This document shows positions 5,010 to 14,675 of a stretch of DNA of 64,000 bases, one piece after another. How positions within the stretch are numbered: the stretch's first letter is position 1; every line of letters starts with the position of its first letter. Location of the stretch: positions 864,001 to 928,000 of the forward strand of contig OY970355.1 in NCBI GenBank assembly GCA_963718525.1. The letters are read 5' to 3'. The translations under genes were made by a program, and so were the position numbers. Source of the DNA: Candidatus Dormiibacterota bacterium. GTDB lineage: Bacteria; Chloroflexota; Dormibacteria; Aeolococcales; Aeolococcaceae. The notes under the pieces are model-generated. The model saw nothing but the letters and a program-made list of their open reading frames with translations. It searched no databases and had not been told where the DNA came from.

Positions 5010-6223
5010 CCCGCGTCGTCCAGAAGTACGGAGGATCGAGCGTTGCGACGCCGATGCGGCTGCGCCGGGTCGCTCGGCGCATCCGGGAGTCGCTTGAGGC
5101 GGGATCCGAGGTTGTCGTTGTGGTCAGTGCCATGGGCGACACCACCGATGAGCTCATCGCACTTGCGCATCGCGTGACCGGCGACCCGCCATCGCGCGAG
5201 ATGGACATGCTGCTCAGCAGCGGCGAGACCATCACCGCGCCATTGCTGGCGATGGCGCTGCATGCCGCGGGCACACCGGCGATCTCGCTCACGGGTGCGC
5301 AGGCCGGCATTCGCACCAGCAGGGCACACCGGACCGCGCGGATCGTCGACATCGTCCCGCAGCGAGTGCTCGACGAGCTCGGGCGGGGCAACGTGGTGGT
5401 GGTCGCCGGTTTCCAGGGCGCAACCGAGGATATGGACGTGACCACCCTCGGGCGCGGCGGCTCCGACACGACCGCAGTCGCGCTTGCGGTGGCGATCGGC
5501 GCCGATCACTGCGAGATCTTCACCGACGTCCCCGGTGTGCACACCGCCGATCCGCGGATCGTTCCCTCTGCGCGGGTGATCCCGTCGATCGACTACGACG
5601 AGATGCTCGAGCTCGCCTCAGCGGGAGCGCGGGTGATGCATCCGCGCGCAGTCGAGATCGGCGAGGCCTACTCGATGGAGATTCGGGTTCGATCCACGTT
5701 CGACAACGAACCGGGGACAATCATCGCGAAGCAGGACCGCATGGAAATCCGCCAGAAGGTGCGCGCCATCGCGCACGAGACCGACGTCGCAAAGGTGACG
5801 CTCCTCCGCGTCCCGGACCAGCCGGGAGTCGCCGCGTCGATCTTCGGGCCCTTCGGTGAGGCGGGCATCGACATCGACATCGTGCTCCAGAACGTCAGCC
5901 ACGACGGCACCACGGACCTGAGCTTCACCATCGCCGAGTCGCACCTGCCCAAGGCCCGCCGCATGCTCGCGTCGGTGGCGAAGAGCGTGCACGCGCAGGG
6001 GTATACCGCCACCGCCGGCGTCGCCAAGGTCACCGTCATCGGGAGTGGGCTCAGGGGAACGCCGGGCATCTACGCGAAGATCTTTCGTGCGCTCGCCGAC
6101 GCGGACATCAACATCCAGATGATCGCCACCAGCGAGATTCACGTCACCTGCATCATCGATCGTCCACGCGTCCGCGACGCCGTTCGTGCGTTGCACACCG
6201 CGTTCGAGCTGGAAAGGATTTGA
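5006..6223 (+). CDS. lysC: Aspartate kinase with two ACT domains
   Basis: VQKYGGSS, TTLGRGGSDTTA, TDVPGVHTADPR. Confidence 0.95.
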   Translation: MTRVVQKYGGSSVATPMRLRRVARRIRESLEAGSEVVVVVSAMGDTTDELIALAHRVTGDPPSREMDMLLSSGETITAPLLAMALHAAGTPAISLTGAQAGIRTSRAHRTARIVDIVPQRVLDELGRGNVVVVAGFQGATEDMDVTTLGRGGSDTTAVALAVAIGADHCEIFTDVPGVHTADPRIVPSARVIPSIDYDEMLELASAGARVMHPRAVEIGEAYSMEIRVRSTFDNEPGTIIAKQDRMEIRQKVRAIAHETDVAKVTLLRVPDQPGVAASIFGPFGEAGIDIDIVLQNVSHDGTTDLSFTIAESHLPKARRMLASVAKSVHAQGYTATAGVAKVTVIGSGLRGTPGIYAKIFRALADADINIQMIATSEIHVTCIIDRPRVRDAVRALHTAFELERI

Positions 6224-7308
6224 GCCTCAGTGTCGGCATCGTCGGACTGCCCAACGCCGGCAAATCGACGCTGTTCAACGCCATGACTCAGGCCGGCGCT
6301 GCAGTCGGCAACTATCCCTTCACGACCATCGAGCCGAACACAGGCGTCGTCCCCGTTCCAGACGCGCGTCTCGAGCAACTCGCAGAGCTGTTCCAGCCTC
6401 CGAAGGTGATTCCGGCGACGGTCACCTTCACCGACATCGCCGAACTCGTGCGTGGCGCGAGCCGCGGCGAGGGACTGGGCAACCGCTTCCTCGGCCATAT
6501 CCGCGAGGCCGACGCGACGGCGCTGGTGGTCCGAGCATTCGAGGATCCAGACGTCACCCACATCGAGGGCGGTGTCGACCCGGTCCGCGACATCGACGTC
6601 CTGGAGCTCGAGTTGCAGCTCGCCGACCTCGAAACCGTCACCCGGCGGCTGGAGCGCACCGAGAAAACGTCTCGACTGCAGAAGGAGAAGGAGCCCGAGC
6701 TGATCGATCTGCTGCGCCGGGTCCAGCAGCATCTCGACCAGGGCAGGCCGGTTCGAACCATGCCGCTGAACCCCGAAGAGCAGTCGATGTTGCGGGAGTT
6801 CTGGTTGCTGACGGGAAAGCCGCTGATGGTTGTCGTCAACGTCGCGGAGGCCGGGGCGCAGGACCCCGTCCCCCAGGAGATCATCGAGCGAGCGGCGCTC
6901 GCCGGTGGCGACGCCATCGCCGTCTCGGCGCGCATCGAGAACGACATCGCCGAGCTCGATGCCGCCGACCGCGACGCGTTCCTGCACGACCTTGGCCTCG
7001 CGGAGCCCGGGCTGTACCGGGTTGCGCGCAGCGCGTACCGGTTGCTCCGGCTGATCACCTTCTTCACCGCGGGCGACACCGAGGTTCGCGCCTGGAACCT
7101 CCGCGAGGGCGAGACCGCGCTCGACGCGGCGGCGAGCATCCACACGGACATTGCCCGCGGGTTCATCCGCGCCGAGGTGACCGGCGCCGAGGAACTCCTC
7201 GATGCGGGCTCGTACGCCGTGCTGCGCGAGCGGGGCAAACAGCAACTCGAGGGCCGCGACTACGTGATGCGCGACGGCGACGTCATCCACGTGCGATTCA
7301 ATCTCTGA
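6220..7308 (+). CDS. ychF: Redox-regulated Obg-family ATPase YchF
   Basis: GLPNAGKST, NYPFTTIEPN, GEGLGNRFL, GFIRAE; G3 motif reads DIAE instead of DIAG. Confidence 0.93.
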   Translation: MSLSVGIVGLPNAGKSTLFNAMTQAGAAVGNYPFTTIEPNTGVVPVPDARLEQLAELFQPPKVIPATVTFTDIAELVRGASRGEGLGNRFLGHIREADATALVVRAFEDPDVTHIEGGVDPVRDIDVLELELQLADLETVTRRLERTEKTSRLQKEKEPELIDLLRRVQQHLDQGRPVRTMPLNPEEQSMLREFWLLTGKPLMVVVNVAEAGAQDPVPQEIIERAALAGGDAIAVSARIENDIAELDAADRDAFLHDLGLAEPGLYRVARSAYRLLRLITFFTAGDTEVRAWNLREGETALDAAASIHTDIARGFIRAEVTGAEELLDAGSYAVLRERGKQQLEGRDYVMRDGDVIHVRFNL

Positions 7309-7309
7309 C

Positions 7310-8029
7310 ATGGTCGCCAGCGCTGAGCGGCTCGAGCTGATCATCGATGGAGGCGCTCCCGGGCAGGAGAACATGCGTCGCGACCTGTCGCTGCTCGATG
7401 CGTGCGCGCACGGCGAGATCTCCGGCGCAGTCCGCCTCTACTGGTTCGAGCCGGCGTGCTTGAGCCTGGGCCGCATGCAACCGCTCGACGACGTGGATCT
7501 TGAGGCGTGCGCTCGCGACGGTGTCGACATTGTTCGCCGCCCGAGCGGCGGCCGCGCAGTGCTCCACGACCAGGAGGTGACCTACTCGGTGGTGTGCCGT
7601 TCGGACGATCCCATCTTCGGCGGACGCGTACTGGAGTCGTGCTCCAGGATTCACCAGGCCGTCGCGAGAGGCCTCGAGATGCTCGGGGTGCATGCCGTCC
7701 CGCGTGCGATGCCCGCAAACCTCCGACGTGACGCCCGCGATGGGGCGGCGGTCGCGGACTGCTTCGCCCGGCCGGCGGCGCACGAACTCCTCGACGACAC
7801 GGGTCGGAAGATGGTCGGCAGCGCTCAGGCGAGGCGAGCAGGTGCGCTGCTCCAGCACGGGTCGGTCCTGCTCGAGGCACCACGGGCGGCGGCGTATCTT
7901 CGCAGCGATACGGGACCGTCGTTCGGTGGCATCGGCGTGCGCGAGCTGCTTGGTCGCGAGGTGGGACGAGCGGAGCTCGTCGACGCGCTTGCTGAGGGGT
8001 TCAGCAACGCCCTCGAGCGGTCATCGTGA
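7310..8029 (+). CDS. Lipoate-protein ligase A / LipM-like octanoyltransferase
   Basis: RRPSGGRAVLH, KMVGSAQ, LLQHGS. Confidence 0.85.
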   Translation: MVASAERLELIIDGGAPGQENMRRDLSLLDACAHGEISGAVRLYWFEPACLSLGRMQPLDDVDLEACARDGVDIVRRPSGGRAVLHDQEVTYSVVCRSDDPIFGGRVLESCSRIHQAVARGLEMLGVHAVPRAMPANLRRDARDGAAVADCFARPAAHELLDDTGRKMVGSAQARRAGALLQHGSVLLEAPRAAAYLRSDTGPSFGGIGVRELLGREVGRAELVDALAEGFSNALERSS

Positions 8030-8719
8030 CGCGCAGGATCGCCGCGCCACAAAGACGTACTCGCGGCTCTCGTCGGTGAGCGGCGTGCTGTCGAAGTCGC
8101 CGTAGAGCGCTTCATGGTCGAGCCCCGCGACGTCGATGAGCCCGAGCCACTCGTTCTTGGTTGCCCACCAGAGCGAGCTGGTCGCGCCGCTGTCGAGCGT
8201 CATGTCGATCCTGTTATCGCCGACTGCATAACGGTTCGTATGAGGCAACGGGGAGTCCATGTGCTCCCCGTCGAGCTTCGACGCGACCTGGTGGTCGAAC
8301 GCAAAGACGTTCCACGCAAACCGCCCGCCCGGCTGCAGTGAGGCGGCCACGCCTTCGAACGTGCGGCGCCGTTCGGCCCACGTCCGCACGTGAAGAAGCG
8401 CCCGAAACGGGCAGTAGATCAGAGCCGCCGGCTCCTCGAGCGCGAAATCCCGCATGTCGCCAAAGCGCAGGTCGAGATCCACGCCCGCATCGGCCGCGCG
8501 ATCGCGCGCCTGGGCAAGCATCGCCGGCGACGTGTCGATCCCGATGACGCGCCGTCCGGTCTCGCGCGCCACCGGGATGGCGACGCGCCCGTTTCCGACC
8601 GCCAGCTCAACGAGCGGTCCTGCCGCCTCGCGCGCGAGCCCGACGTAGAAAGGGATGTCGGCGCTCATGGCATCCGACCACTCGTCGTACCGATTCGCGA
8701 ACTCCTCGTGCCAGCTCAC
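8021..8719 (-). CDS. Class I SAM-dependent methyltransferase
   Basis: LVELAVGNGR motif I, GIDTSPAML, GDMRDF. Confidence 0.85.
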   Translation of the reverse strand: MSWHEEFANRYDEWSDAMSADIPFYVGLAREAAGPLVELAVGNGRVAIPVARETGRRVIGIDTSPAMLAQARDRAADAGVDLDLRFGDMRDFALEEPAALIYCPFRALLHVRTWAERRRTFEGVAASLQPGGRFAWNVFAFDHQVASKLDGEHMDSPLPHTNRYAVGDNRIDMTLDSGATSSLWWATKNEWLGLIDVAGLDHEALYGDFDSTPLTDESREYVFVARRSCASR

Positions 8720-8873
8720 GCGCAGATGCTACGGGTTGCGCGCGCATCGAGCGGAGCGTCCCCAACCTCAGGCGCGCCTGAACCTGCTGCGAGCGAAGGC
8801 GGCGCCTGCGGCAGCGCGCCTCTGGCCGAACGAGTCTCGAGGGGCTATCCTCGTCGCGTCTCGAGGTGGCGTG

Positions 8874-9362
8874 ATGTCGTGGGGTCGTGACTGGTCGGAG
8901 CTGAAAGCGGGACGAAGGTGTCCAATCTGTCGTGACGTCGACCGGGAGGACAACGGCTACGGGCTTCGCTACTTCCGGGGCAACTGGATGAGCGCCTTCC
9001 TGCAACGGGAGGAGGTCGTGCCCGGATACAGCGTTGCCTACTGGCACGGGCGCCATGTCTGCGAGCCGTGGGAACTGCGTGACGACGAACTCATTGGCTA
9101 TTTCGGGGAGGTGAATCTCGTCAGTCGAACGCTGTCCGACCTCTTCGGCTCGGCCAAGATGAACTACCAAATTCTCGGCAACGTCGTGCCACATCTTCAC
9201 GTCCACATCCTCCCCAGGAGCCAGTCAGACCGAAGCCCACGCGCGCCCCTCGTCTGGCCTCCGGCGGCAGATTCACCCACCGGAAGGCAAAGGGTTCCGG
9301 AGTTCGACCTGATGAGGTACGTCACTGAGCTGCGCGGCCTGCTGCCCCAACCGCCCCCATGA
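8874..9362 (+). CDS. HIT-family hydrolase
   Basis: CPIC near the N-terminus, GNVVPHLHVHILPR histidine triad; GAGGTGG SD upstream. Confidence 0.85.
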   Translation: MSWGRDWSELKAGRRCPICRDVDREDNGYGLRYFRGNWMSAFLQREEVVPGYSVAYWHGRHVCEPWELRDDELIGYFGEVNLVSRTLSDLFGSAKMNYQILGNVVPHLHVHILPRSQSDRSPRAPLVWPPAADSPTGRQRVPEFDLMRYVTELRGLLPQPPP

Positions 9363-9387
9363 TGACTGCGGCGGGTAAACGTCTGAT

Positions 9388-9440
9388 TGAATACCCCCGC
9401 ATGATGTGTTAGCGTTCGGCAAAGGCCACAAGATGTAGGG
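9388..9440 (+). promoter_or_regulatory. Putative sigma70 promoter followed by an NrdR-box-like site
   Basis: TTGAAT(9388)-16 bp-TAGCGT(9410) with TG extension; GCCACAAGATGTAGGG at 9425-9440. Confidence 0.4.
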
Positions 9441-9465
9441 CTGCACCCCTTACTCCAAGGCTCGT

Positions 9466-9574
9466 CGGGCAGCGGGCGCCGGGCTTCACCACCGCTCAGG
9501 CCATGGCTCCCATCGTGGCCATCTCATCCGGAGGCCCGCTGCCTGCCCCGTCACCGTGGTGCGACGGCAGGCAG
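9466..9574 (+). ncRNA. Candidate structured RNA or leader with mutually exclusive stems
   Basis: GGCAGCGGGC(9468-77)/GCCCGCTGCC(9534-43) versus CTGCCTGCC(9539-47)/GGCAGGCAG(9566-74). Confidence 0.3.
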
Positions 9575-9626
9575 TGCTGCGCTGCCGGGTCGGGCGCGCA
9601 CCCCCCTGATACGCTTCGATCAATTC

Positions 9627-10094
9627 ATGGCCAAGAAGACCCGAAAGCAAAAACAGCGAACCGCGACGCGACGCCCGCAGGCATCCGCCCCTGCTTCGCC
9701 CGGCACGGCGGTGCGCCAGGCCCCCGCACCGCTGCCCGCAAGCCCGCGTCCGGCGCAGGCTCAGGTGCTGCCGCAAACGTTGCTGCCGCTCCCGGGTGCT
9801 GACCTCGACATCGAGTCCGAGCCGGCCGACGAAGCGCCCGCTGAGCAGCCGGGCGCTGACACGTCGGCACGCCGGCGTGTGCAGCGGGTCAACCCCGCAG
9901 CTCAGCCTCGCGTCATCAGGGGCCAGGTGAGCGCAGCCGCTCTCTTCCAGCCGCTCGAAACTGACGACGCGGCGATCCCGTTCGACCGAGTGCCCTATGT
10001 GCCTCGGGATCTGCGGCGGGTGGCGATCATGGCCTCGCTCATGGTGGTGCTCATCCTCGTCGCGGCGATCGTGGTGACGCGCATCAATCCGTGA
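9627..10094 (+). CDS. Hypothetical tail-anchored membrane protein
   Basis: Basic, Pro/Ala-rich disordered N-terminus; single hydrophobic helix ending about 5 residues from the C-terminus (YVPRDLRRVAIMASLMVVLILVAAIVVTRINP). Confidence 0.75.
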   Translation: MAKKTRKQKQRTATRRPQASAPASPGTAVRQAPAPLPASPRPAQAQVLPQTLLPLPGADLDIESEPADEAPAEQPGADTSARRRVQRVNPAAQPRVIRGQVSAAALFQPLETDDAAIPFDRVPYVPRDLRRVAIMASLMVVLILVAAIVVTRINP

Positions 10095-10110
10095 GCAGCG
10101 AGACACGCGC

Positions 10111-11283
10111 GTGCGAGTGATCCTCTACACAGGCAAGGGTGGCGTCGGCAAGACGACCGTCGCCGCGGCAACCGCTGTCAAGTGCGCGAGCCTTGGGCTC
10201 AAAACCCTGGTGATCAGCACCGACGCGGCACACAGCCTCGGCGACAGCGTCGACCAGGAGATCGGTGACCAGCCGACCCAGCTTGCGCCGAATCTCTGGG
10301 GGCAGGAGGTCAACGCGCTCCACGAGCTCGAGGAACACTGGGACCGCATCCACATCTACCTGACGTCGCTCTTCGCGTCGCAGGGTGTCGACGACATCGT
10401 CGCCGAGGAGATGGCCTCGCCTCCGGGTATGGAGGAGGTCGCGAGCCTCATGTGGATCAAGAAGCACAAGCGCGAGGGCAAGTTCGACGTGCTCATCGTG
10501 GACTGCGCCCCCACCGGCGAGACCCTGCAACTGCTTGCGTTTCCCGACGTCGCCAAGTGGTACCTCGATCGCATCTTCCCGATCCACAGGATGATGAACA
10601 AGGTGGCACGCCCGGTCATGCAGCCGTTCATCAACATCCCGCTGCCGAGCGACGAGATCTTCAGCAACGTCAAGGACCTTCTCCTCGATCTCGAGGGGAT
10701 GAAGAAGATCCTCGGCGATCCCAAGGTGTGCACCACCCGGATCGTGCTCAACCTCGAGAAGATGGTGGTCAAGGAAGCGCAGCGAGCGTTCACGTACCTG
10801 AGCCTGTATGACTACCTCACCGATCTCATCGTCGTGAACCGCGTGCTCCCTCCGGAGGTCACCGACACGTATTTCGATTCCTGGCGCGAGGCCCAGCAGC
10901 GGTATGCGGTGTTGGTGGAGAGCGCCTTCTCACCCATCCCGACACTGCAGACCAAGCTGTTCGATCACGAGATCGTCGGTCTCGAGTCACTCACCGAGAT
11001 GGGCGAGTCGATCTACGGAGACCGTGATCCCTCGCAGATCTTCTATCACGCCGTGCCGCAGCGCATTCGCAAGGTGGGCGACACGTACGAGCTCCAGCTG
11101 CACCTTCCGTTCGTCGGCAAGGAGGACGTCGACATCAAGCACCGCGAGGGCGAGCTCTTCGTCAGTGTCGGTCCGTACAAGCGTGAGATCTCACTGCCGC
11201 GGGTGCTCAACGGCAAGCGCGTGACCAGAGGGCGCATCGAAGACGGAATGCTCTCCGTCACCTTCTCGAATCGACGCCCATGA
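10111..11283 (+). CDS. ArsA/Get3-family ATPase with C-terminal Hsp20-like domain
   Basis: GKGGVGKT, STDAAHSL, DCAPTGET; single ATPase domain; beta-rich tail (YELQLHLPF...REISLPRVL). Confidence 0.9.
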   Translation: MRVILYTGKGGVGKTTVAAATAVKCASLGLKTLVISTDAAHSLGDSVDQEIGDQPTQLAPNLWGQEVNALHELEEHWDRIHIYLTSLFASQGVDDIVAEEMASPPGMEEVASLMWIKKHKREGKFDVLIVDCAPTGETLQLLAFPDVAKWYLDRIFPIHRMMNKVARPVMQPFINIPLPSDEIFSNVKDLLLDLEGMKKILGDPKVCTTRIVLNLEKMVVKEAQRAFTYLSLYDYLTDLIVVNRVLPPEVTDTYFDSWREAQQRYAVLVESAFSPIPTLQTKLFDHEIVGLESLTEMGESIYGDRDPSQIFYHAVPQRIRKVGDTYELQLHLPFVGKEDVDIKHREGELFVSVGPYKREISLPRVLNGKRVTRGRIEDGMLSVTFSNRRP

Positions 11284-11546
11284 CCGATGCGTGCCGCGTC
11301 TGCCCCACGCGTCTCATCGATGAGGCGTCGCGCGTCCTCGGGACATCGTTCGGAGACCTGGTTCCCCCCGAGGCACAGCGGCATCTGCTCATCGCGCAGC
11401 GCGAGCTGCTGCTTGCCCTGGCTGCGATGATCGAGCACCACACACGGCAACAGCCGGAGTCCACCGAGCATGCGACCCGTGGCCGGAGACGATCACGGAG
11501 CGGAACAGAGCGCTCGCGGCGGCCGTCGCGGGTCGAGCTCGAGTAG
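11280..11546 (+). CDS. Small CxxC-containing helical protein coupled to the ArsA-like gene
   Basis: ATGA overlap; CRVCP; amphipathic HLLIAQRELLLAL helix. Confidence 0.7.
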   Translation: MTDACRVCPTRLIDEASRVLGTSFGDLVPPEAQRHLLIAQRELLLALAAMIEHHTRQQPESTEHATRGRRRSRSGTERSRRPSRVELE

Positions 11547-11556
11547 CCGGCACCGG

Positions 11557-12294
11557 GTGATCACTCCCGGTACCTACCTGGCGATCGTCCTCTACACGTT
11601 GCCGGGCTTCGTGTTCGGCTCGGTCATCCACGAGCTCAGCCACAACGCGGTGGCGTTGCGCGGCGGCGATCCAACCCCGCGGCGGGACGGCCGCATGACA
11701 CTCGACCCTCGTCGCAACCTTGACCCGCTGGGCTGTCTCGCTATGCTCGTTGCCGGCGTCGGCTGGGGGCGGCCGGTCAAGCTCGACCCGCTGTACCTCC
11801 GTGAGGGCCGGCAGCGCGCGGCGGTCGCGGCGGCAGGACCGCTGGCGCATCTCGTCGTCGCAGCGGTCTTCGCCGGTGCGCTGCGTGTCGAACTCCTCGA
11901 ATCGGGCATCGACGCGTCAGGTTTCGTGATCCTCGCGCAGTTCACCCTCCAGGGGATCATCCTCGGGGTGCTGCTGCAGGGATTCCTCGTCAACATCGCG
12001 CTCTTCGTCTTCAACGCGCTGCCGATTCCGGGGCTGGACGGCTACGCCGTGGTGCGCGCTCTGCTGTTCAGCGCACTGCCTCGAGTGTTCCTGTATCTCG
12101 AGCAGTACCGGCATGCGATCTACGCCCTCGTCGCGCTCGCGCTGCTGCTGCCGCCGCCGCTGACTCACGGCGCTTTCGACCTGGCCTCCGCCATGACGGT
12201 TGGCACAGCCTCGCTCACGTTCGACCATCTGATCATGCCCGGCGTGCAGCCGCTCTTCCTCGGGCTGCCGAACCTGTTTCACCTTCTGTCGTGA
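11557..12294 (+). CDS. Site-2 protease (peptidase M50)
   Basis: HELSH, NLDP, AGPLA, FNALPIPGLDG. Confidence 0.9.
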   Translation: MITPGTYLAIVLYTLPGFVFGSVIHELSHNAVALRGGDPTPRRDGRMTLDPRRNLDPLGCLAMLVAGVGWGRPVKLDPLYLREGRQRAAVAAAGPLAHLVVAAVFAGALRVELLESGIDASGFVILAQFTLQGIILGVLLQGFLVNIALFVFNALPIPGLDGYAVVRALLFSALPRVFLYLEQYRHAIYALVALALLLPPPLTHGAFDLASAMTVGTASLTFDHLIMPGVQPLFLGLPNLFHLLS

Positions 12295-12800
12295 GCGCCG
12301 TCATCGTCGAGGGTGTCGAGTGGCAGGTGGAAGGTGCACAGATCGCGATCGTGGAGCGGGGACGCGTCCTGCTCCAGTTCCGGCCCTGGCCTCCGGGCTG
12401 GGAACTTCCCGGCGGGCACTGCGAGGCCGGCGAGGACCCGGCGGTCACTGCCGCGCGCGAGACCGCGGAGGAGACAGGCTACGAGGTGCGCATCGCCGGC
12501 ATCGTCGGTGTGTACTCGTGGCGGGGGCTGCGGTCGGCGGGCGACGTGGTCTATCTCGGGGTGGTGATCGGGGGTGCGCCGCGGCGGAGCATCGAAGCCT
12601 GGGCACTCCGCATGGCATCTCCTGACGCGCTCCCCCGAACGGTGTTCCCGTGGATGCGCGATCGCGTGCGTGACGCGGTCGCCGCCGCCGCGGGCGGCCC
12701 CCCGGTGCATCGCGTCCAACCGGTCACCATCCGCCATGTGCTCGGGTTCGCCACCGCATGGCTGCACACGCCGATCGACAGGTTGCTGCGCCGCCGATGA
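12291..12800 (+). CDS. NUDIX hydrolase
   Basis: WELPGGHCEAGEDPAVTAARETAEETG Nudix box. Confidence 0.9.
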   Translation: MSAVIVEGVEWQVEGAQIAIVERGRVLLQFRPWPPGWELPGGHCEAGEDPAVTAARETAEETGYEVRIAGIVGVYSWRGLRSAGDVVYLGVVIGGAPRRSIEAWALRMASPDALPRTVFPWMRDRVRDAVAAAAGGPPVHRVQPVTIRHVLGFATAWLHTPIDRLLRRR

Positions 12801-13786
12801 TCACTGCGCTGCTGTTCGTCGCGAGCCTGATCCTCGTGGTGATCGCGTCCGAGCTGTTCACCAATGCCATCGAATGGGCCGGGTACATGCTCAATCTCGG
12901 CACTGGCGCGACCGGGAGCCTGCTCGCGGCGCTCGGCACCTCGTTGCCCGAGACCGTCGTACCGATCGTTGCGCTCGCAACCCATTCGCCGTCGGCGAAC
13001 GCGGTCGCCACCGGTGCCGTGTTGGGATCGCCGTTCCTGCTGCTCACGGTTGGAGCGGGTGCAACCGGCGTCGCGGTGGTGATCCGCGGTGGTGCGCGCC
13101 GGCTCACAGTCGACCCCCGCCAGGCTCGACGTGACCTCGGGGTCTTTCTCGGGGCATTCACCGTCGCAGCGCTGTCGAGCCTGCTCCCGAGTGGCGCAAG
13201 AATCGCGGTCGGAGCGCTGCTGCTGCTCGCGTATGCCGTCTACGTTGTCGCAACACTCCGCGGCAGCACGGCGGCGGGCGAGAGTCCGGAACCGCTGCAC
13301 ATCGTGCGCTGGCGCCCGGGTGAGCCCCACCCGGTGCTGGTGACCGTGCAACTCCTCGTTGCCGTCGGCCTGCTGATCGTCGGTTCGCAGCTCTTCGTCA
13401 CCGCACTCGATCGGACGGCGTCGGCGTTGCAGATCCCCGCGATGGTGCTCGCGCTCGTGATCGTGCCCGTGGCAACCGAGCTGCCCGAGACATTCAACAG
13501 CGTGCTCTGGGTGCGCACCGACGACGACATGCTCGCGTTCGGCAACGTGGCCGGGTCCGCGGCCTTTCAGTCCTGCGTCCTCGCCGCGATCGGCATCGTC
13601 TTCACGACCTGGCACCTGGGGTCGGCCGGCCTCATCAGCGTCACGCTCACGCTGATCACGGCGGCCTTCCTGCTCGTGTCGCTCTGGACCGGCCGCGCCC
13701 GCGGCTCGCTGCTGATGCTCACGCTGGTGCCGTGGGTGGCGTATGTCATCGCGCAGGTCGCGACCGGTGGACGGCTGGCGGTCTGA
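12797..13786 (+). CDS. Sodium:calcium antiporter family protein
   Basis: Two alpha repeats (GTSLPE...GS; ATELPE...GNVAGS); about 10 TM helices. Confidence 0.88.
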   Translation: MITALLFVASLILVVIASELFTNAIEWAGYMLNLGTGATGSLLAALGTSLPETVVPIVALATHSPSANAVATGAVLGSPFLLLTVGAGATGVAVVIRGGARRLTVDPRQARRDLGVFLGAFTVAALSSLLPSGARIAVGALLLLAYAVYVVATLRGSTAAGESPEPLHIVRWRPGEPHPVLVTVQLLVAVGLLIVGSQLFVTALDRTASALQIPAMVLALVIVPVATELPETFNSVLWVRTDDDMLAFGNVAGSAAFQSCVLAAIGIVFTTWHLGSAGLISVTLTLITAAFLLVSLWTGRARGSLLMLTLVPWVAYVIAQVATGGRLAV

Positions 13787-13805
13787 GCGGGACAATCGCG
13801 GACTT

Positions 13806-14675
13806 ATGCGCGTTCACGCCACCGGCGACGTGGAGGAGTATGCCGCCGCAGCGGAGACGTTCCTCCGGGCCGAGCCGTGTGCTCGCAACGTGTTGCTCAC
13901 CATCGTGGACATCGTGCGAACCGCGCCGTCGATGTACGGTGCGCCGAGCTTCTGGTGGATCACGGACGCCGGCGCAGTCGTCGGTGCGGCCAGCTGGACC
14001 CCTCCCCACCACCTGCTGGTGTCCTCGATGCCGCCGGAAGCCACGGCCGGGATCGCGGCCGCCGCTCTCGAGCGCGCGACGGGGCTCGGCATCCGTCCCG
14101 GCGGTGTGGTCGGACCCGCGTCATCAGCGCGCGCGGTTGCGGCGGCATGGACCGCCATCACGGACGACACCATCGAACTCGACCGGCCCATCCTGCTCAA
14201 CGAGCTTGGTTCGCTCACGGAGGTGACGAGACCGCCCGGCGAGCGCCGGGGCGGGGTCGACGGCGACGTGATTCTCGTCGCCGCGTGGCTCGAGGAATTC
14301 ACGGCCGAGATCGAGCACATCGCGCCGGCGGACTCCCGGGCGATGGCGCAACATCTGATCCGGTCGGAACAGCTGGACCTCTGGGTCGTCGACGGAGAGA
14401 CTGTCTGCATGGTCGGGCACCGGCACGCTGCCGGCGTCCTGCGCGTCGGTCCCGTGTACACCCCTCCGCAGCACCGCAACCACGGCTACGCGAGACGGCT
14501 CACCTACGAGGTGACCGCGATCGCACTCGAGCATCCGGACGTCAACCACGCCATGCTCTTCACCGATGCAGCCAATCCTGTCTCGAACTCGATCTATCAG
14601 CAGGCCGGCTATCAGCCGCGCGGCGAGCACGTGGAAATCGAATTCGCGAAGCGGGACGTCCAACCCGGGCATTAG
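13806..14675 (+). CDS. GNAT-family acetyltransferase
   Basis: VGPVYTPPQHRNHGYA, LFTDAANPVSNSIYQQAGY. Confidence 0.88.
   Translation: MRVHATGDVEEYAAAAETFLRAEPCARNVLLTIVDIVRTAPSMYGAPSFWWITDAGAVVGAASWTPPHHLLVSSMPPEATAGIAAAALERATGLGIRPGGVVGPASSARAVAAAWTAITDDTIELDRPILLNELGSLTEVTRPPGERRGGVDGDVILVAAWLEEFTAEIEHIAPADSRAMAQHLIRSEQLDLWVVDGETVCMVGHRHAAGVLRVGPVYTPPQHRNHGYARRLTYEVTAIALEHPDVNHAMLFTDAANPVSNSIYQQAGYQPRGEHVEIEFAKRDVQPGH

Follow-up and report, generated by a model that had tools for sequence, protein, structure and literature searches.

Does a bacterial gene cluster that places a tail-anchored protein beside a Get3-like ATPase encode one pathway for handling such proteins at the membrane, or do its genes belong to smaller, separable units? 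The question is raised by a 64,000-nucleotide stretch of DNA from a Candidatus Dormiibacterota bacterium (Chloroflexota; Dormibacteria; GenBank assembly GCA_963718525.1, contig OY970355.1, positions 864,001 to 928,000 of the forward strand; G+C ~68%), referred to here as the window. Four of its genes encode a 155-residue protein with a C-terminal membrane anchor (TA155), an ArsA-family ATPase with a C-terminal alpha-crystallin (Hsp20-like) domain, an 88-residue protein (S88) and a small intramembrane metalloprotease of family M50 (hereafter M50). An initial annotation, made from the sequence of the window, had proposed that these genes form a single GET-like module of client or receptor, chaperone, adaptor and quality-control protease. 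We find two pairs that separate from each other across genomes: the ATPase with S88, a widespread core, and TA155 with M50, a linkage found only in Dormibacteria among the loci examined. The overall reading that we favor, in which the locus combines these two pairs and S88 would dock on the alpha-crystallin domain of the ATPase, is on balance probable.

Open reading frames (ORFs) for all four genes are present on the plus strand at 9627-10094 (155 amino acids), 10111-11283 (390 amino acids), 11280-11546 (88 amino acids) and 11470-12294 (274 amino acids), and their tight, same-strand packing is as annotated. The spacer between TA155 and the ATPase gene is 16 nucleotides, and the ATPase stop and the S88 start overlap in ATGA. 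As judged from the sequence, the true start of M50 is most likely the GTG at 11557 rather than the longest-ORF start at 11470; this GTG lies 10 nucleotides past the S88 stop and yields a protein of 245 amino acids, the usual ORF length among relatives. In the window, the ATPase-S88 pair is probably co-transcribed with TA155 and M50. The features are as follows.

9627..10094, plus strand: TA155, tail-anchored protein; unmatched in Pfam and NCBIfam, family seen in no group but Dormibacteria
10111..11283, plus strand: Get3/TRC40-type P-loop ATPase with C-terminal alpha-crystallin domain (Pfam, NCBIfam, PDB sequence search, Foldseek)
About 10111-11016, plus strand: ArsA_ATPase domain of the ATPase, residues 1-302 (PF02374)
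About 11077-11265, plus strand: ArsA_HSP20 domain of the ATPase, residues 323-385 (PF17886)
11280..11546, plus strand: S88, small partner, AF_1253 (PF27253; precomputed family label, alignment, model)
11532-11543, plus strand: C-terminal V-E-L-E of S88
11557..12294, plus strand: small intramembrane metalloprotease of family M50 (site-2 type), no PDZ or CBS domain (PF02163, motifs)

A Get3/TRC40-type ATPase with an alpha-crystallin domain

The ATPase is a Get3/TRC40-type protein with a C-terminal alpha-crystallin domain, and not an arsenite-pump ArsA. Matches to PF02374 (ArsA_ATPase; 7.8e-91, 304.9 bits) and, over residues 323-385, to PF17886 (ArsA_HSP20; 1.4e-19) bear out the annotated single-domain ATPase with an Hsp20-like tail. 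The protein scores 259.1 bits against TIGR00345 (TRC40/GET3/ArsA family), well above the cut-off of 135; by contrast, the ArsA equivalog TIGR04291 is matched over residues 4-153 only, with 85.6 bits against a cut-off of 650, and the Get3d model NF050088 (Get3_fold_NosAFP) with 132.1 bits against a cut-off of 325. A sequence search of the PDB returns two archaeal Get3/TRC40 proteins at the top (3zq6, 8.5e-48; 3ug6, 1.8e-41), with weaker matches to E. coli ArsA (5.2e-27), eukaryotic Get3 (about 1e-24) and NosGet3d (1.7e-21). A structure model built on 28 sequences (predicted local distance difference test (pLDDT) 80.8, predicted template modelling score (pTM) 0.81) displays a seven-strand sandwich at residues 317-386; its confidence is lowest in the helical subdomain, as would be expected if this subdomain is mobile. 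Foldseek with this model again places 3zq6 first (6.4e-26) and E. coli ArsA 41st, and the alignment with NosGet3d (8egk) extends over 396 columns, crystallin domain included (TMq 0.69). Nearness to archaeal Get3/TRC40 by both sequence and fold thus upholds the earlier assignment as Get3-like.

The Pfam family name, ArsA_ATPase, would suggest that the protein is an arsenite-pump ArsA energizing an arsenical efflux carrier. Against this stand the low TIGR04291 score, the presence of one ATPase domain instead of two, the 41st rank of E. coli ArsA by fold and the genomic context: the sole ArsB-family match in the genome is ~1.9 Mb from the locus, and neither acr3 nor ArsD gave a match in the genome. 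This explanation is already contradicted and almost certainly wrong, and the statement that no arsB, acr3 or arsD lies nearby holds; arsR, also named there, was not searched for.

Residues GKGGVGKT (8-15), D131 and APT133-135 are invariant in our alignment A2, with G136 nearly so; we take these to be the deviant Walker A motif (GKGGVGKT) and the switch II motif (DxAPTG). Cysteines occur only at positions 25, 132 and 207, so that there is no CxxC zinc motif as in eukaryotic Get3/TRC40. The helical subdomain (residues 69-202) contains seven methionines and aligns with archaeal TRC40 through the insert region. Binding of a tail anchor in a hydrophobic groove is, on the strength of sequence and model, a candidate property only.

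Among known proteins, archaeal Get3/TRC40 (Methanothermobacter thermautotrophicus 3ZQ6 and Methanocaldococcus jannaschii 3UG6) has the nearest ATPase core, its chains of 324 and 349 residues aligning to residues 5-307 and 3-308 of the window ATPase and leaving the crystallin tail unmatched. We know of no partner for archaeal Get3/TRC40. The Get3d proteins of plants and cyanobacteria (AtGet3d 8ELF; NosGet3d 8EGK/3IGF) share the two-part architecture, yet the window ATPase is far from them in sequence, as its NF050088 score indicates, and its P-loop is intact, whereas the Get3d active site is described as incomplete in the accessible part of PMC10248533. The ATPase fits Group 6 of the bacterial Get3 homologues, which carry a C-terminal alpha-crystallin domain and occur in phyla including Chloroflexi and Actinobacteria (PMC6593721). 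Table 1 of that paper lists a single domain, an insert or groove, no CxC/CxxC motif and an alpha-crystallin domain for this group, and the ATPase has each of these; in its accessible part, the paper assigns Group 6 proteins no function and mentions an operon for the ArsA rows of the table only.

Elsewhere in the genome, outside the window, two adjoining ArsA-family genes lie on the minus strand (G000 contig 1, 312478-314342; loci L002 and L003) and may be a BagA/BagB-like pair. The weak NCBIfam matches to BagA/BagB belong to the window's own ATPase, not to these two genes.

A small partner gene linked to the ATPase

Linkage between the ATPase and S88 was assessed in a first set of 90 loci (23 from the window's genus, 27 from other Dormibacteria and 40 from elsewhere in the phylum), together with 80 further ATPase loci from many phyla; a partner profile was iterated over all ORFs of these 170 loci. 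Seven unpublished genomes (G027, G032, G036, G311, G213, G078 and G381) enter the genome counts, the locus comparisons and the tree; they are left out of alignments A1-A3, and none of the conclusions depends on them alone. All 93 matches to the profile lie directly downstream of an ATPase gene on the same strand. S88 is present in 68 of the 90 loci of the first set (50/50 Dormibacteria, 18/40 other Chloroflexota) and in 25 of the 80 loci of the wider collection, including Actinomycetota, Acidobacteriota, Desulfobacterota and Planctomycetota (a Scalindua genome). The cyanobacterial, Chlorobi, Chloroflexus-type and Firmicutes ATPase loci examined have no partner ORF downstream, which, for cyanobacteria, is a further difference from Get3d. 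On the ATPase tree, presence of the partner requires 14 changes, compared with a mean of ~45 for shuffled labels, and the ATPases of Dormibacteria group in a single clade whose branching agrees with the families. The close linkage thus marks the 88-residue protein as a true partner of the ATPase, the two also being absent together by family (below), and a dedicated small gene following the ATPase in many lineages distinguishes these loci from the published description of Group 6.

S88 and TA155 gave no match in scans of the Pfam and NCBIfam libraries. A precomputed label, PF27253.1, is attached to the window's own S88 (P0067, 100% identity) and to all 120 listed homologues, and a protein atlas names the family AF_1253, uncharacterised; a literature search with the accession PF27253 found no paper. 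The ATPase belongs to an established class; the family of its partner bears a Pfam number and has no assigned function. The family alignment displays a conserved helix, PPEAxxHLxxAQRELLLA, in which His35 and Glu42 are invariant, followed by a basic low-complexity stretch and a conserved C-terminus. S88 is modelled as a helical hairpin (helices 9-27 and 30-57) with a disordered, flexible and basic tail; Foldseek with this model found no match in the PDB.

The earlier description of S88 as a translationally coupled protein with a CRVCP motif and an amphipathic helix stands in part: the ATGA overlap and the helices are there, while the CRVCP cysteines are missing in most family members, which rules the motif out as a conserved feature. 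In seven Actinomycetota loci (L132, L137, L144, L146, L152, L160 and L170), the ORF downstream of the ATPase is longer, at 113-149 amino acids; CxxCP is visible in the ORFs of L146, L152, L160 and L170 and extends to CxxCPxC in three. The CRVCP of the window may be a remnant of this actinobacterial CxxCPxC motif.

Two database proteins were considered as fusions of ATPase and partner and set aside: P0121 (478 amino acids) is a frameshifted read-through with the Hsp20-like domain translated out of frame, and P0122 is an odd fragment.

TA155, M50 and the separability of the two pairs

TA155 is, as annotated, a disordered protein with its sole transmembrane helix at the extreme C-terminus: P, A, Q, R, S, T and G make up 73% of residues 1-105, and the lone hydrophobic stretch (residues 132-151; mean Kyte-Doolittle value 2.98) is followed by 4 residues. 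The same build, with about 8 Lys/Arg in residues 1-15, a Pro/Ala-rich linker, a conserved juxtamembrane IPxD-RVPYxxxDLRR element and the terminal helix, recurs in all 23 relatives compared. A profile of the last 62 residues retrieved 171 cluster representatives from 1.84 billion proteins, and among the 150 listed matches (41-236 amino acids) the matching region reaches the C-terminus or stops no more than about 10 residues short of it. None of the 481 homologues has a Pfam family assigned, and wherever a source is named it is Dormibacteria; near TA155 in the protein atlas lie solely unnamed clusters of Dormibacteria and Chloroflexota. Across 143 loci, a generic scan likewise found tail-anchored ORFs upstream of the ATPase in Dormibacteria only, barring two probably spurious ORFs.

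The fourth gene is the M50 intramembrane protease that had been annotated. It matches PF02163 (Peptidase_M50) with 34.4 bits, above the cut-off of 27.2, and in the 245-residue form both HELSH (residues 25-29) and NALPIPGLDG (residues 152-161) are intact; a sequence search against solved structures gave no match. It shares with site-2 proteases the HExxH and LDG motifs, a multi-pass membrane core predicted from sequence, and the vicinity of a single-pass protein with a very short external tail, here TA155, but it has no PDZ or CBS domain, and its neighbor is an orphan tail-anchored protein rather than an anti-sigma factor. A protein whose single helix ends four residues before the C-terminus is a plausible direct substrate of a site-2 protease, with no first cut needed. 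Because the lone C-terminal helix and ~4-residue external tail of TA155 suit an M50 protease in this way, the two are most likely a protease and its substrate or regulator.

In the first set, profiles of the window genes matched TA155 at 49/90 loci (49/50 Dormibacteria, 0/40 others) and M50 at 45/90 (45/50 and 0/40). The counts by family, from 80 sampled genomes of the class plus the window's own (f1, the window's family), are as follows.

TA155: f1 17/18, f2 4/5, f3 21/23, f4 23/23, f5 10/11
ATPase: f1 17/18, f2 5/5, f3 0/23, f4 22/23, f5 10/11
Partner (S88): f1 17/18, f2 5/5, f3 0/23, f4 21/23, f5 9/11
M50: f1 8/18, f2 5/5, f3 20/23, f4 20/23, f5 9/11

The order of the genes is kept in four Dormibacteria families, down to 54% ATPase identity, which supports the annotation on this point; in these four of the five families, the ATPase-S88 pair sits between TA155 and M50. 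An obligate four-gene module does not survive the same comparison. Counts for the ATPase and S88 run parallel by family, including their joint absence from f3, and the two genes are therefore present or absent as one, with TA155 and M50 persisting without them. In the 20 f3 genomes that carry both TA155 and M50, the coordinates place M50 some 0.06-0.75 kb downstream of TA155, in the same orientation; among five f3 loci inspected, M50 follows TA155 directly in two, one 137-amino-acid ORF intervenes in two, and selA replaces M50 in one. TA155 is thus independent of the ATPase in f3. In f1, M50 was not found in 10 of 18 genomes, which keep the other three genes, so that TA155 does not require the protease either; at five such loci of the window's family, a NUDIX gene stands in M50's place, and the M50 query was negative genome-wide (genomes 90-98% complete). 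Outside Dormibacteria, the ATPase-S88 pair occurs, at the loci examined, without an upstream tail-anchored protein and without M50, and the one-module proposal fails there as well.

The ORF between TA155 and M50 in f3 (137-138 amino acids; L179 and L180, genus g15) is conserved between both loci.

An integrated GET-like pathway, in which the ATPase captures the TA155 anchor (or TA155 is the membrane receptor), S88 serves as adaptor and M50 clears mis-inserted or surplus protein, would account for the four-gene order in the four families, for the tight or overlapping spacing in the window and for the very hydrophobic TA155 helix. It would also give a role to the basic N-terminus of TA155 on its long flexible linker, which we take to be reminiscent of the Get2 tether. 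Moreover, the accessible part of PMC10248533 describes in vitro capture of a tail-anchored protein by Get3d proteins, which share this ATPase's architecture. The pathway is nevertheless unlikely in our judgement, given that f3 has TA155 and M50 but neither ATPase nor S88, that M50 was not found in the 10 f1 genomes, that the scan of 143 loci found upstream tail-anchored proteins in Dormibacteria only, and that a further gene splits TA155 from the ATPase in two families, encoding a DUF1003 protein in f4 (L050, L054 and L058) and a DUF4446 protein in f5 (L053, L055 and L057), both small membrane-protein genes. The ATPase may still have a GET-like role.

The genes flanking the cluster bear on how much its order can mean. 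In the window, ychF and an LplA-like gene lie upstream of TA155 (6220-8029), and the f3 loci (L179-L183) have ychF or lplA upstream and selA-selB downstream. These housekeeping flanks are syntenic across the class, and conservation of the neighborhood within it is therefore weak evidence of function and may reflect simple inheritance. The shared flanks also identify the region as a syntenic block in which the ATPase pair either stands as a whole between TA155 and M50 or is lacking.

Such synteny, and the variation of the pair's neighbors between phyla, would also suit a general stress holdase or chaperone made up of the ATPase and S88, with no special link to membrane proteins and with the window neighbors owed to inheritance alone; Get3 has a known ATP-independent holdase activity, as noted in the accessible part of PMC6593721. 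Two features speak against this explanation: the helical subdomain retains the insert and is rich in methionine, as in Get3 proteins that bind clients, and the pair occupies precisely the place between TA155 and M50, with spacers that are short or overlap, and no other place in the block. We regard this explanation, too, as improbable. Under the two-pair reading, TA155 would be a substrate or regulator of M50, and in the four families with the pair inside the TA155-M50 string it may in addition be a favored, non-dependent client of the ATPase.

Beyond the two pairs, the window cluster continues with a fifth gene (12291..12800, plus strand: NUDIX hydrolase, outside both conserved pairs), whose start overlaps the M50 stop by 4 nucleotides and which is probably co-transcribed with the upstream genes; it is a neighbor at order level only (38/90 loci of the first set). 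A promoter and terminator scan of positions 8600-14000 found nothing beyond chance. The longest-ORF start of a gene of the Na/Ca-exchanger family (PF01699; 12758-13786) lies 43 nucleotides before the NUDIX stop, and its true start is probably later. On the other side (8021-9362), a methyltransferase gene on the minus strand and a HIT-domain ORF on the plus strand overlap by 65 nucleotides if the longest ORFs are taken; in a comparison of 30 related loci, the HIT gene was found solely at the window's own.

Proposed docking of the partner tail

What the ATPase and S88 might do together is suggested by the end of the small protein. A small co-directional ORF lies downstream of the ATPase in 121 of the 144 loci that are outside the window's genus and have enough downstream DNA, and 56 of these 121 ORFs end in [IVL]x[IVL][DEK], compared with 30 of 6812 other ORFs of 40-200 amino acids at the same loci. 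Archaeal ORFs in the same position that the profile missed have similar endings: KIEIK and KVEIK in Thermoplasmatota proteins of 61 amino acids, and RIEID in one from Methanomassiliicoccales. Seven Actinomycetota downstream ORFs end in IDL, IDV, IDI or IPV, followed by an acidic tail, and the genome's own small heat-shock protein (sHSP) carries QIPVS after its crystallin domain. In view of the enrichment at ATPase-downstream ORFs and of this QIPVS, we read the tail as a docking peptide of IXI type; by analogy, it resembles the sHSP IXI tail, which docks on alpha-crystallin domains.

In the mechanism that we propose, the S88 tail, [IVL]x[IVL][DEK], would dock on the alpha-crystallin domain of the ATPase in the manner of an sHSP IXI tail in the beta4/beta8 groove. 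Docking would tether the S88 helical hairpin beside the ATPase dimer through the flexible basic linker, and the hairpin might then act as a co-chaperone or regulate either the nucleotide cycle or the hydrophobic chamber for clients. With the IXI/V anchoring motif of sHSPs the arrangement has in common a short [IV]x[IV] tail preceded by a flexible linker; it differs in that tail and crystallin domain belong to two proteins, S88 and the ATPase respectively, so that docking would occur between two gene products and build no sHSP oligomer. The acidic extension that follows IXI/V in a cyanobacterial sHSP, as described in the accessible part of PMC12925178, may be likened to the acidic tails of the actinobacterial partner analogues. 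Our searches found no paper describing a partner for bacterial Get3 homologues, and none of the papers listed combines Get3 with the IXI motif.

Several observations weigh against this reading. The strict [IVL]x[IVL][DEK] ending is missing from 22 of 71 profile-positive partners. Conservation of the crystallin domain is about equal in ATPases with and without the partner, only F334 (0.98 versus 0.50) and R364 (0.78 versus 0.24) standing out. Many ATPases of the same architecture have no partner (cyanobacteria, Chlorobi, Chloroflexus type and Firmicutes), and the alpha-crystallin domain must therefore have a partner-independent role. Natural fusions of ATPase and partner were sought, and no intact one was found. 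For the TA155-M50 pair, the failure to find M50 in 10 of 18 f1 genomes counts in the same direction, as do the syntenic housekeeping flanks, in that the gene order may carry no functional meaning.

In a bolder version, AF_1253 proteins would be co-chaperones whose IXI tails dock on the alpha-crystallin domain of Get3 relatives in prokaryotes, and in Dormibacteria the ATPase and its co-chaperone would be wired to a tail-anchored client and a site-2 protease. We regard this version as unlikely, slightly more so than the integrated GET-like pathway or the general holdase. If true, bacteria would have their first GET-like circuit for insertion and quality control in which the client is named.

Relatives of Get3 that carry an alpha-crystallin domain are found in many bacterial phyla, archaea and chloroplasts, and the accessible parts of PMC6593721 and PMC10248533 describe as unknown what these proteins do, which partners they have and what the extra domain is for; for Get3d in particular, the latter describes the partners as unknown and the role of the crystallin domain as unclear. 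The Dormibacteria arrangement supplies a candidate client and a candidate protease-substrate pair, for which family f3, without the ATPase, is a natural control. A small protein that follows the ATPase and carries an sHSP-like docking tail offers a concrete binding hypothesis, and with it a lead to the function of the bacterial Get3 relatives.

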